Made by a program: the position numbers and the translations under genes. 64,000 nt of DNA from a virus. Positions 6,042 to 56,048 of the stretch are shown here, piece by piece. The notes below the pieces were generated by a model. It made no database searches, was not told the origin of the DNA, and saw only the letters and a list, made by a program, of their open reading frames with translations. Each line of letters begins with the position of its first letter. Positions within the stretch are counted from its first letter, which is position 1. The stretch lies in IMG/VR virus record IMGVR_UViG_3300027734_000039. One strand, given 5' to 3'.

Positions 6042-6118
6042 TGGCGATCACTGATGGATTCGAACCATCGACCTACAGATTAGAAGTCTGTTGCTCTATC
6101 CAGCTGAGCTAAGTGACC
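6042..6118 (-). tRNA. tRNA-Arg(UCU)
   Basis: Canonical cloverleaf; ACAGA-CTTCTAA-TCTGT anticodon arm; encoded CCA. Confidence 0.95.
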
Positions 6119-6126
6119 ATTAGAAA

Positions 6127-6418
6127 GGGTGAGGGGATTCTGTTTCCAAGCTCCCCTCGAGCTCATGTTAGGCAGCTAGTGCCTGACGATATGCAACATT
6201 GTCGTTTGCATTTACGATTAGCTTTCGGTCTCCTCGCACCTTTACTACGCACGTCGATCCTATTTCGCCCCCATCAAAAGCACTCTGCCCTTTAACGTAT
6301 CTACAGGAACGTTGTGCGACCAATACGTCTCGCCGAACAACCAGAGTGCTTATGGTGGAGGCGGTGGGTACTGCCCCCACGTCCGAAACGTTTATTCCAT
6401 ACGCCTCAACGACCTAAG
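6127..6418 (-). ncRNA. ssrA: Circularly permuted two-piece tmRNA, tag ANDNVAYRQALAA*
   Basis: Acceptor piece ends ...CCGCCTCCACCA at 6353. An intervening hairpin follows, then the coding piece starts GGGGGCGAAATAGGATCGAC at 6272. Tag frame 6209-6168. Outer ends approximate. Confidence 0.92.
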
Positions 6419-6453
6419 CACAATATTTATAATACCCTACTATACCTTTAAAG

Positions 6454-7578
6454 TCAAGTTACAATCTTCAGTAGGATAGTGTTCTCGTTAATGCGATGAG
6501 CGAAAGTAGCTTCGTTCTTAAGATCGTCCATAAGTTTACGAAGAACGATCTTACCGCCATCAGAAACTCTCTTAACATACTCTTCTGGCTTGCGACCAGT
6601 TCGTTTGCTAACAGAGTTCTTTTCATCGTAACCGATAATACTCGTACCCTTTACCTGAAGACCGCCACGATCAAGAGCACGGAAAACAGTAAGGACTTTA
6701 TTCTTTGTATTGAACGTCCAAAGTTCCTGAGCACCGATAATTTTTTCTGGATTAACAGAAGCGATCTTGAAGGTGTTATCTTCTTTTTGGAACTTAAGAC
6801 CCTTCAACTTCTTTTCAACGGAAACTGCACGTGGCTTACGAGGAGTTCTAGTTTTCTTAGCTACGTTACCATAACGTTCGGAGTCTTCAATCAACTTACT
6901 AAAGAATTCCACTCGCTCACGAAGCTGTTTCTTTGTAAGACCCTTATACGCTTCTTTAAGTTGTTCGTCGGAACCTTCCAAAGCTTCGATAAGCTCGTCC
7001 AACCACGGAGCATATTTACTGACGATCATAGGAGCGTATAGGGCTGGCACTTCCTTTGCCTTGAGCCATTCATAAAGAGAAAACGTTTCGCCCCTATCGA
7101 TCAGCTCTTCAATATCGCCGATGATATCTTGGGCTTTCTCTTTAATACGATCTTGAATTGAAACTTTAGGAGTATCAACTTCTACGCTCTTATCTTCTTC
7201 CTTTGCCTTAGAAAGAGTTTCTTTAAGACGCTTTTCAAAATATGGTTTCGAGCTATCAGGAAGGTTATAGCCCTTCGACATCATCCTACAAACCCAAGCG
7301 GCAGTTGTAGGAATCCAAACGTCAGGAACCTTTTTAAATTTCTTATATTCGATTGTACGATTTGTATTCTTAAGATAAGTTTCGATATACTCGCGAGCAT
7401 CTGAATTGTCGCACATATAATTGTACCAATTCAAAGCACGTGCATAATCGCCTTCTGTAAGAGGCTTGGTGAAAACGGGCTCGTCGCCAAGATACTTCAA
7501 ATTAACAAGATACGCTTCGTTACGAGTAACGCGAGGCTTCTTTGTTTTTTTTGCAATAAGTCCAGGACGACGAGCCAT
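6454..7578 (-). CDS. Conserved hypothetical protein of T4-like phages
   Basis: 374-aa ORF in the operon direction; ALNWYNY, SVNPEKIIGAQELW and RINENTILL motifs. Confidence 0.7.
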   Translation of the reverse strand: MARRPGLIAKKTKKPRVTRNEAYLVNLKYLGDEPVFTKPLTEGDYARALNWYNYMCDNSDAREYIETYLKNTNRTIEYKKFKKVPDVWIPTTAAWVCRMMSKGYNLPDSSKPYFEKRLKETLSKAKEEDKSVEVDTPKVSIQDRIKEKAQDIIGDIEELIDRGETFSLYEWLKAKEVPALYAPMIVSKYAPWLDELIEALEGSDEQLKEAYKGLTKKQLRERVEFFSKLIEDSERYGNVAKKTRTPRKPRAVSVEKKLKGLKFQKEDNTFKIASVNPEKIIGAQELWTFNTKNKVLTVFRALDRGGLQVKGTSIIGYDEKNSVSKRTGRKPEEYVKRVSDGGKIVLRKLMDDLKNEATFAHRINENTILLKIVT

Positions 7579-17331: not shown

Positions 17332-17390
17332 TTGACTTTTGAACAGTTGGTAGGTATAATCAATTGTTGACGATGAACAGGAGAACAAAG

Positions 17391-17594
17391 ATGACTGGTG
17401 AATTCCTCCCTGCTGACGCGACAAGCGCGAAGCAAGAAATTGTTGCTGAGTTGTATCAGCGACTCCATGATGTTCGTCGTTCTTTGGCTATCAAAGTTCC
17501 GCAGTACGACGAGTTTGAGATTGGTATTAGCTGTCGGTTGGCCAACGAAGAAGCTTGGTTGGTCGAGTTTCTTGATAAGATTGAGAGGAGCTGA
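17391..17594 (+). CDS. Early hypothetical protein
   Basis: AGGAG SD downstream of a TTGACT..TATAAT promoter. Confidence 0.55.
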   Translation: MTGEFLPADATSAKQEIVAELYQRLHDVRRSLAIKVPQYDEFEIGISCRLANEEAWLVEFLDKIERS

Positions 17595-17596
17595 AG

Positions 17597-17716
17597 ATGC
17601 GTAACGTAATCGCGAAGGACGTTCACTCCCCGAAGTATCGTCCGCGAGTTGTTCGCTCTAAGAAGGGCAAAGGTTCTTACGACCGTAAGAAAGTTGGTAA
17701 AAATGTTGGTCATTGA
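17597..17716 (+). CDS. arfA: ArfA-like alternative ribosome-rescue factor (39 aa, not in ORF track)
   Basis: MRNVIAKDVHSPKYRPRVVRSKKGKGSYDRKKVGKNVGH* with GAGGAG SD; aligns by eye with the ArfA core [23 protein letters not shown]. Confidence 0.8.
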   Translation: MRNVIAKDVHSPKYRPRVVRSKKGKGSYDRKKVGKNVGH

Positions 17717-17771
17717 CTTTTAATAGTTGGTGACGTATACTATATAATAGAGTTGGTCAGAGGAGTCTAAG

Positions 17772-17939
17772 ATGGTAAAAGTTGCCTACGTCGTAAAGAA
17801 AGAAGATGGTTACCTCAAAGATATCTCGATCAAGTTTGATTCGATGCAGGATGCGATCAGGCACATTCGTTTGATACAGAATAAATATAACACCAGTAAA
17901 GAATATCTTATTGGTAAACCTGCAATAGAAAGAATCTAA
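17772..17939 (+). CDS. Hypothetical protein (55 aa, not in ORF track)
   Basis: GAGGAG SD; MVKVAYVVKKEDGYLKD... Confidence 0.5.
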   Translation: MVKVAYVVKKEDGYLKDISIKFDSMQDAIRHIRLIQNKYNTSKEYLIGKPAIERI

Positions 17940-52298: not shown

Positions 52299-52697
52299 AT
52301 GTGGTTTTATAATAATGTCGAATTTACTGACATTGGTGAGTATGTAGGATTTGTATATCTAATTACTAACCTCACCAATGATCGGAAATACATTGGCAAG
52401 AAAAATTTTTACTTTAGTAAGACAAGAACTATCAAAGGTAAGCGAAAGCGAACCAAAGTTGAGTCTGATTGGAAAACTTATTACGGCTCTAATAAAGAGC
52501 TTCAAGAAGATGTTGAAGCTTTAGGAGCAAACAATTTTAAGAGAGAAATCTTAAAATTATGTAAGAGTAAAGGTGAGTTTGGTTACTTCGAAGCCAAGTA
52601 TCAATTCGAAAATAATGTCCTAGAAACCGATGAATACTACAATTCATGGATATCTTGTAAAATTCACAAGAAGCACTTGACTTTTATAAAGGTTTAG
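52299..52697 (+). CDS. GIY-YIG endonuclease (endonuclease II/DenA-like position)
   Basis: GFVYLITN..KYIGKK..YYGS..FKREIL..YYN; follows nrdB. Confidence 0.85.
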   Translation: MWFYNNVEFTDIGEYVGFVYLITNLTNDRKYIGKKNFYFSKTRTIKGKRKRTKVESDWKTYYGSNKELQEDVEALGANNFKREILKLCKSKGEFGYFEAKYQFENNVLETDEYYNSWISCKIHKKHLTFIKV

Positions 52698-53487: not shown

Positions 53488-54186
53488 ATGTTTTATACAG
53501 ATACAAATACAGTAACAAGAGAACAGTATGATCTTGGTTTGCGCCAGTTTATGCTTGGTGTCTATAATAACATGACGCTTGCTTTGGCTATTAGTGGTCT
53601 CGTTTCAGTTGGCATTTATATGAGCCCAACACTCATGGCTGCTATTTGGGGAACGCCTCTCAAGTGGGTTGTTATTTTTCTTCCGCTTGCTATGTCTTTC
53701 GGCTTTGCTTTTCTTTTCGAAAAGATGAATGCTCGACAAGCTCAATTGGCATTGTATGTTTTTGCAGCAGCAATGGGTCTTAGTTTGAGTTCTATCTTTG
53801 CTATCTATAAACTCGGTAGCATCGGTCAAGTGTTCTTTATCTCGGCTGCTACATTCGGCGCTGCTTCGCTTTATGGATATACGACAAAAGCAGATCTTAC
53901 TAAACTCGGTTCATTCCTCATTATGGGTGCACTTGGTTTGGTCATCGCTGGTCTTATTAATATTTTCCTTCAGAGCTCGGTATTCGCTTTTGTAATCAGC
54001 TGTATTGCTGTTCTAATCTTCACTGGTTTGACTGCATATGATACTCAGCAATTGAAGTCAATCTATGACTTTACAGTTGAAGAAGAGCAAGAAAAGCTAG
54101 GCATCTATGGCGCACTTCAGCTCTACATGGACTTCATCAATATCTTCGTCAATCTTCTTCAGCTTATCGGCGAAAAGAAAGATTGA
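53488..54186 (+). CDS. Bax inhibitor-1/YccA family membrane protein
   Basis: About 7 TMs; YGYTTKADL, FTGLTAYDTQ and GALQLYMDFINIF motifs. Confidence 0.92.
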   Translation: MFYTDTNTVTREQYDLGLRQFMLGVYNNMTLALAISGLVSVGIYMSPTLMAAIWGTPLKWVVIFLPLAMSFGFAFLFEKMNARQAQLALYVFAAAMGLSLSSIFAIYKLGSIGQVFFISAATFGAASLYGYTTKADLTKLGSFLIMGALGLVIAGLINIFLQSSVFAFVISCIAVLIFTGLTAYDTQQLKSIYDFTVEEEQEKLGIYGALQLYMDFINIFVNLLQLIGEKKD

Positions 54187-55484: not shown

Positions 55485-56048
55485 ATGAGCGATAAAGAAG
55501 ATAAGATTTCAAATGTTCCGTCTTTGTGCGATCATCACATGATGATGTTTTTCAAAGACTTCGATTCTAGTGCAGCTTCTGATGGTATTGAATTCATCAT
55601 AGCTAGAAATCTTATGAAAAAAGATAAACCTAAAATGATTAAGATGTTGATCAACTCTCCAGGAGGGGAAGTTGCTTCGGCATTTGCTCTTATTGATACT
55701 ATGAAGGGGTCAAGGATTCCTATATATACTTACGGTCTTGGTGAAATCGCTAGCTGTGGTCTTATGACTTTTATTGCTGGTGAAAAAGGACATCGTTACA
55801 TTACTCGTAACACTGCTATCCTTTCACACCAATATAGCTGGGGCTCTTGGGGTAAAGAACACGAACTAATGGCTCGTGTTAAAGAATTTAATAATACACA
55901 AACGAGAATCGTAGAGCATTATAAGAAGTGCACTGGTCTTAATGAAAAAGACATTAAGAAGTATTTGCTTCCACCTGAAGACGTTTGGCTTACTGCCAAG
56001 GAAGCTGTGAAGTATGGTATTGCTGATGAAATCGTTGACTTTTACTAA
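55485..56048 (+). CDS. clpP: ClpP-like protease
   Basis: INSPGG, IASCG (Ser), HQ (His), DVWLTAKEA (Asp) and YGIADEI. Confidence 0.92.
   Translation: MSDKEDKISNVPSLCDHHMMMFFKDFDSSAASDGIEFIIARNLMKKDKPKMIKMLINSPGGEVASAFALIDTMKGSRIPIYTYGLGEIASCGLMTFIAGEKGHRYITRNTAILSHQYSWGSWGKEHELMARVKEFNNTQTRIVEHYKKCTGLNEKDIKKYLLPPEDVWLTAKEAVKYGIADEIVDFY

Follow-up and report, generated by a model that had tools for sequence, protein, structure and literature searches.

A short, stop-terminated ArfA homologue in a tmRNA-carrying T4-like phage, a putative minimal ribosome-rescue factor

A small open reading frame (ORF) in the window, i.e., the whole 64,000-nucleotide stretch of IMG/VR virus record IMGVR_UViG_3300027734_000039, encodes a genuine homologue of ArfA, a ribosome-rescue factor that serves beta- and gammaproteobacteria as a back-up and is held in check by tmRNA. 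The 39-amino acid (aa) product is best read as a minimal rescue peptide of the ArfA family that would act via a release factor, beside a tmRNA encoded by the same phage (probability roughly 0.6). It belongs to a short branch of ArfA that occurs in SAR11 and in many phages; this branch is little noticed and its rescue function is putative. The novelty lies in the stop-terminated form without the N-terminal minidomain in phage and SAR11, as phage genes with an ArfA domain have themselves been annotated before and come as no surprise. If active, the peptide would rank with the smallest known rescue factors and would show how little of ArfA suffices for release. It would also mean that infecting phages supply their host cells with ribosome rescue that is free of regulation, be it with or without a tmRNA of their own.

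The ArfA-like gene and its phage

The initial annotation had proposed an ArfA homologue and suggested a search against the Pfam ArfA family as a check. This search resulted in a match of 37.2 bits (E = 1.9e-9, profile positions 14-41 of 44), which lies above the curated gathering cut-off of 25.5 bits for PF03889, so that the lack of an HMM match, named at the outset as a refuting outcome, did not occur. A phmmer search against the PDB identified chains of E. coli ArfA (YhdL; PF03889; solved structures include PDB 5H5U, 5MGP, 5MDV, and 5U4I) as the sole matches (E = 8e-5 to 1.3e-4), and residue i of the peptide corresponds to residue i+11 of E. coli ArfA in the gap-free alignment. Exactly the same protein had already been predicted by public gene callers and tagged PF03889, and a homologue search with one extra upstream in-frame codon returned only a near-identical protein. 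A search of NCBIfam gave no match, PHROGs placed the peptide solely in a family of unknown function, and Pfam DUF7230 showed no match to it at E up to 10. The signature that had drawn attention to the ORF, KKGKGSYDRK, is found at residues 22-31 and is indeed preceded by the pattern H-x-P-x-(F/Y)-R-x-R-V, which reads H-S-P-K-Y-R-P-R-V at residues 10-18. Alignment A1 shows little or no variation in the columns of N3, A6, K23, G24, K25, S27, and R30.

The expression signals of the gene (Table 1) bear out further observations made at the outset, namely a strong Shine-Dalgarno sequence, a stop codon belonging to the gene itself and the absence of a hydrophobic tail from the 39-aa peptide. Terminator-like sites on the plus strand were detected neither inside the ORF nor between it and the next gene, and folding of the RNA from 17570 to 17780, in which an ArfA-type regulatory hairpin was sought, yielded values like those of shuffled sequences (z -0.30). 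The gene therefore ends in an ordinary TGA and gives no sign of the hairpin or terminator with which E. coli arfA is equipped. The upstream gene orf67, for which a Pfam search revealed no family, terminates with a TGA at 17592-17594. Only 2 nt separate this stop codon from the ATG of the ArfA-like gene, and the two genes are therefore probably co-transcribed and translationally coupled. Most likely, the promoter in front of orf67 drives this two-gene unit. Ten near-consensus promoters of the form TTGAC[TA]...TA[TC][AG][AC]T are scattered across the window.

Table 1. Positions of the ArfA-like gene, its expression signals, the tmRNA and further annotated genes in the window
Feature	Position	Strand	Remarks
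Alpha-type two-piece (permuted) tmRNA	6128-6461	-	Rfam and ARAGORN
Sigma70-type promoter TTGACT-17-TATAAT	17332-17360	+	11/12 consensus positions
orf67, upstream 67-aa ORF	17391-17594	+	Called as gene on public contigs
Shine-Dalgarno AGGAG	17586-17590	+	6-nt spacer to ATG of ArfA-like gene; read from sequence
ArfA-like gene, short form	17597-17716	+	39 codons, ATG to TGA; TGA at 17714-17716
Next sigma70-type promoter TTGACT-17-TATACT	17713-17741	+	-35 hexamer (17713-17718) contains the TGA of the ArfA-like gene
SegE-like GIY-YIG homing endonuclease	52299-52697	+	133 bits; between nrdB-like gene and tRNA-Leu
Bax1-I/YccA-family membrane protein	53488-54186	+	PF01027, 188.8 bits
ClpP-family protease	55485-56048	+	PF00574, 114.5 bits

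Identical copies of the ORF are present on independent metagenome contigs, one of which, from Logan, matches the window at 100% identity along 8.5 kb. The ORF is also retained in two diverged variants (L012 and L175); one of them, 902 nt in length, shows 96% identity, and the other has scattered mismatches over 1,570 nt. Both promoter regions are 100% unchanged in these variants. Within the ORF, three synonymous changes and a single non-synonymous change were counted across both variants; the latter, H10R, is directed towards the family consensus. Neighboring ORFs diverge by 2-7% in the same variants. Because the identical ORF recurs on independent metagenome contigs, it is a real and conserved phage gene and more than a chance reading frame.

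The phage itself is T4-like, as indicated by genes for a gp43 polymerase, UvsX, a DnaB-type helicase and gp59, and the ArfA-like gene is situated in its small-gene region. The GC content of the window is about 40% and five tRNAs are present. Its gp43 polymerase exhibits at most 50% (49%) identity to those of cyanomyophages and 44% identity to that of Caulobacter phage Cr30, and no phage in GenBank was matched by the locus in a megablast search. Judged by these comparisons, no close relative of the phage has been sequenced; its most plausible host would be an alphaproteobacterium.

A second ribosome-rescue element of the phage is its tmRNA, which belongs to a transcription unit separate from that of the ArfA-like gene. 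It was identified by Rfam models RF01849 (122.2 bits with a cut-off of 50, E = 8e-33) and RF04321 (109.9 bits) and by ARAGORN, which reported a permuted tmRNA whose tag ends in YRQALAA (...ANDNVAYRQALAA). The full-length tmRNA directly adjoins a tRNA-Arg(TCT), the two together occupying positions 6045-6461 of the minus strand. Two-piece tmRNA genes are known in marine T4-like myophages of SAR11 and OM43 (PMC9004378). Searches with two SAR11 SmpB proteins (phmmer) detected no SmpB among the ORFs of the window, and none was found in five large ArfA-carrying phage records. The phage homologue of ClpP could contribute to the degradation of tmRNA-tagged proteins. Besides the window, Erythrobacter phage XM05 and one 156-kb IMG/VR contig combine a tmRNA with an ArfA-like gene. 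This combination is absent from Cr30 and from two other T4-like contigs, and ARAGORN detected no tmRNA in the flanks, up to 10 kb on each side, of 80 viral ArfA-like loci.

Two further phage genomes contain ORFs of this kind that are unannotated in GenBank. The ArfA-like ORF of Cr30 (L001:2947-3096; 27.2 bits) is clustered with genes for a GMP reductase and two RNA ligases, and an ORF of Ralstonia phage RsoM2USA (L003:1935-2120), whose 21.7 bits do not reach the cut-off, is found opposite a gene annotated as hypothetical.

Predicted mode of action

Structural and mutational studies have assigned functions to several parts of E. coli ArfA. Its basic C-terminal part, including the KGKGS sequence, fills the empty mRNA channel, where the KH motif (K44-H45) binds to a pocket, while F25 and the strand formed by Q27-E30 are responsible for the recruitment of RF2 (PMC8012679). 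The protein is ordered on the ribosome only up to residues 46-48, and a variant comprising residues 1-40 is inactive (PMC8012679). A minidomain consisting of residues 1-14 together with A18, L19, L24, and F25 becomes ordered on the ribosome and opens RF2 (PMC5378476). In the variant ArfA(A18T), release is abolished with binding and RF2 recruitment remaining intact (PMC5378476; PMC8012679).

The phage peptide spans positions 12-50 of E. coli ArfA and is homologous to it, without gaps, over residues 14-46. Both share a region composed of a helix followed by the strand motif P-aromatic-R-x-R-V, in which Y14 stands for F25 and P16-R-V-V19 for Q27-E30, so that the RF2-recruiting aromatic and beta-strand segment is present at the level of sequence. 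The peptide also retains the KGKGS loop and the basic C-terminal segment: KKGKGSY is kept within the stretch K22-K-G-K-G-S-Y-D-R-K-K-V-G-K35, which corresponds to residues 33-46, and the basic residues R30, K31, K32, and K35 lie beyond E. coli position 40. The KH motif is not conserved, as V33-G34 is found at the aligned positions, and histidine occurs in the C-terminal part of the peptide only as the last residue, H39. The N-terminal minidomain is likewise lacking. Residues 1-11 of E. coli ArfA are without counterpart, and the remaining patch is replaced (A18 by K7, L19 by D8, and L24 by K13), a loss that the initial annotation had overlooked. As far as the alignment can tell, the docking and recruiting parts are kept and the activating part is not. 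The two genes would differ in their control, too: E. coli ArfA is the product of a non-stop mRNA, which arises through an internal terminator or an RNase III hairpin, carries a hydrophobic tail and is subject to tmRNA tagging, whereas the phage gene possesses its own TGA, no terminator and no sequence for such a tail.

From the retained elements, we infer on good grounds that the phage peptide would dock to the ribosome and recruit a release factor. In the proposed mechanism, a ribosome that has run to the 3' end of a truncated mRNA and stalled there would receive the basic C-terminal half, KKGKGSYDRKKVGK, in its empty mRNA entry channel. With the preceding Y-R-P-R-V-V segment, the peptide would extend the domain 2/4 sheet of a class-I release factor of the host, by analogy RF2, by one beta-strand. 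Once activated, the release factor would hydrolyze the peptidyl-tRNA and the ribosome would be freed. Since a normal stop codon closes the gene and neither a terminator nor a cleavage hairpin interrupts it, the peptide would be produced at any time that its sigma70-type promoter is active and would escape the trans-translation tagging and destruction that E. coli ArfA undergoes. The type of promoter and the gene neighborhood suggest early expression. The benefit for the phage would then be that the peptide and the phage tmRNA keep ribosomes available while mRNAs are cut during infection. A complex prediction for the peptide (alignment A1) with Caulobacter RF2 gave a median score of 0.30, compared with a mark of 0.32, a value that speaks neither for nor against binding.

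With the RF2-activating N-terminal minidomain missing or replaced, the peptide might instead dock without activating. It would fill the channel, perhaps recruit a release factor in its closed state as ArfA(A18T) does, and serve as a competitor or modulator that keeps the tmRNA-SmpB or ArfB of the host off the ribosome; or it might work via another partner such as RF1. Indeed, ArfA(A18T) demonstrates that binding and RF2 recruitment can occur without release (PMC8012679), and ArfT of Francisella shows that small peptides with a KGKGS-like stretch can use RF1 or RF2. However, the same short architecture is found at a fixed site across many Pelagibacteraceae, which is hard to square with a purely inhibitory peptide, and the phage possesses a tmRNA of its own, so that a block of trans-translation would harm one of its own genes. 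We regard this explanation as unlikely. The loss of the minidomain is common to all members of the short clade described below, including the chromosomal genes of SAR11. Because the short form is conserved across the clade and on bacterial chromosomes, it is probably functional and might open the release factor by a different route.

Relatives in SAR11 chromosomes and viral contigs

The short ArfA-like clade, as defined in this analysis and not as a curated family, comprises proteins of 31-50 aa that share the core N-x-I-A-K-D-L...K-Y-R-x-R-V-V and whose own stop codon lies about 15 residues or less past KGKGS[YF]-x-R. The 39-aa phage peptide exhibits this length, stop codon and core. When 1.84 billion representatives were searched exhaustively with phmmer, 64 matches with E values of 1e-3 or below were obtained, the majority being 35-80 aa long. 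Two clusters of these were examined and both turned out to be bacterial-chromosomal with conserved synteny. At the SAR11 site, a Trans_reg_C gene is followed by the arfA-like gene, which faces genes for PfkB, HhH-GPD, DapB and DnaJ/DnaK. The end of the Trans_reg_C gene, which codes for a winged-helix regulator, overlaps the ArfA-like gene of 35-48 aa by 4 nt (L004:7372-8147 and L007:1303-2006).

Analysis of GTDB species genomes revealed 268 confirmed ArfA-like loci. Among the best 80 of these 268 loci, 78 belong to Pelagibacteraceae/Pelagibacterales and two are enterobacterial (Mangrovibacter); all 80 possess their own stop codon, with a median length of 38 aa and a median of three residues after the Arg of the motif. 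In an evenly drawn genome sample, 19 of the 401 Alphaproteobacteria showed a match, whereas a published survey based on nhmmer identified arfA in none of 2,376 alphaproteobacterial genomes (PMC11633108).

In IMG/VR, at least 161 contigs encode relatives. None of the conclusions depends on locus L081 (genome G006), which is flagged as unpublished. The viral ArfA-like proteins range from 33 to 163 aa and display several architectures, which can be sorted into four groups. The first consists of minimal forms like the 39-aa gene of the window. In the second group (63-68 aa), the ArfA-like core is preceded by an extension of the N-terminus that is conserved and reads MPGKWDG[KR]SR...DRIF; this class is common in marine viral contigs, with examples at L101:1604-1801, L113:125-328 and about 16 similar IMG/VR loci. 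The third group is made up of fusions of 117-163 aa to a conserved C-terminal region without a Pfam match; IMG/VR examples of 121-142 aa (L156:1195-1557, L143:3661-4086, and L139:3150-3563) show the motif ...GQWSARKAQ...GGGY. The fourth group contains ArfA of the canonical type with a full N-terminus, which stops at 49-50 aa and has no hydrophobic tail. It is represented by L148:9965-10111 (73.9 Pfam bits, with the same gene in L150, T4-like contig G003) and by L170:9965-10114.

The initial annotation had described the gene of the window as "pre-truncated," which would imply a phage-specific truncation of an enterobacterial-type ArfA, trimmed to its active length and thereby escaping control by tmRNA. 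The stop codon of its own, the missing hydrophobic tail and an end at the equivalent of E. coli position 50 would agree with such an origin, and the fourth viral group documents that some T4-like contigs do carry a canonical-type ArfA ending early. However, the nearest relatives of the window gene are not enterobacterial: over its 30-residue core, the peptide shares up to 73% identity with both SAR11 and viral short forms, compared with 41% to an enterobacterial ArfA. The enterobacterial ArfA taken for comparison is of the classic kind, with a frame of 81 codons and a hydrophobic tail. Moreover, the N-terminus is shortened too, and among the best 80 of 268 loci the short, stop-terminated form is the state found on bacterial chromosomes. 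In a FastTree phylogeny of the 30-residue core, the window gene falls into a mixed clade of five viral and seven cellular sequences, which would be compatible with transfer in either direction. The description as "pre-truncated" is thus misleading, as the closest relatives form a clade that is normally 31-50 aa long and stop-terminated in cells and phages alike, and a truncation confined to phage is very unlikely. The canonical-type viral genes in L148, L150, and L170 fit this idea better than the gene of the window. Least probable of all is a passenger without a role in infection, be it a recently captured host gene or a basic small ORF without selected function, which would suit a very small gene in a PHROGs family of unknown function, but not one whose substitutions are mostly synonymous beside diverging neighbors, whose Shine-Dalgarno sequence and promoters are conserved and whose relatives occur in so many viral contigs of different architectures.

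The reading as a minimal rescue peptide can be extended to the whole clade, though this step is tentative and may well fail. The stop-terminated peptides of 31-50 aa from SAR11 and many aquatic phages would then constitute a distinct class of minimal rescue factors, in which the channel-sensing tail and the release-factor strand are kept while the minidomain and tmRNA-coupled regulation are dispensed with. In phages, such a peptide would be permanently active and would, in some cases paired with a phage-encoded tmRNA, form a two-part kit that keeps ribosomes working while mRNA is cut by nucleases of the host or of its defenses. If this were true, ArfA-type rescue would also exist in Alphaproteobacteria, where the aforementioned survey reported none.

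Comparison with other ArfA-like and ArfT systems

The ArfA-like genes of SAR11 display the same architecture as the phage gene, with 31-50 aa and a stop codon of their own, and some of them are annotated as "alternative ribosome-rescue factor." Their consensus reads N-x-I-A-K-D-L-x-x-x-K-Y-R-x-R-V-V-K-x-KKGKGS[YF]-x-RKK. Unlike the phage gene, they are cellular and occupy a fixed site, and most of them carry a Lys/Arg-rich N-terminal extension of 2-6 residues, whereas the phage peptide begins directly with M-R-N.

Among phages, ArfA has been annotated in GenBank for Citromicrobium phage RXM and Brevundimonas phage Kikimora. The RXM gene, g10, is briefly mentioned as ArfA in the literature (PMC8953757). 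In Pelagibacter phage HTVC027P, gp30 contains an ArfA domain and is reported to be highly expressed both early and late in infection (PMC12753301). All three are phages of Alphaproteobacteria and the function of their ArfA genes has been assigned by domain match only. They represent phage types other than that of the window, and their products are 46-83% identical to the window peptide over partial matches. The reports on these phages do not discuss the stop codon, the missing minidomain or the co-carriage of a tmRNA. A literature search identified no paper on the short clade, its occurrence in SAR11 or its regulation, and no characterized phage ArfA.

A tested rescue factor of comparable size is ArfT of Francisella tularensis, a 40-aa protein restricted to Francisella that can use either RF1 or RF2 (PMC6299226). 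ArfT shows no detectable sequence relationship to the phage ORF. However, it resembles the phage peptide in having a KGKGS-like sequence close to its C-terminal end and an ordinary stop codon, and it is free of non-stop control. ArfT is the closest tested precedent for the way in which the phage peptide may work.
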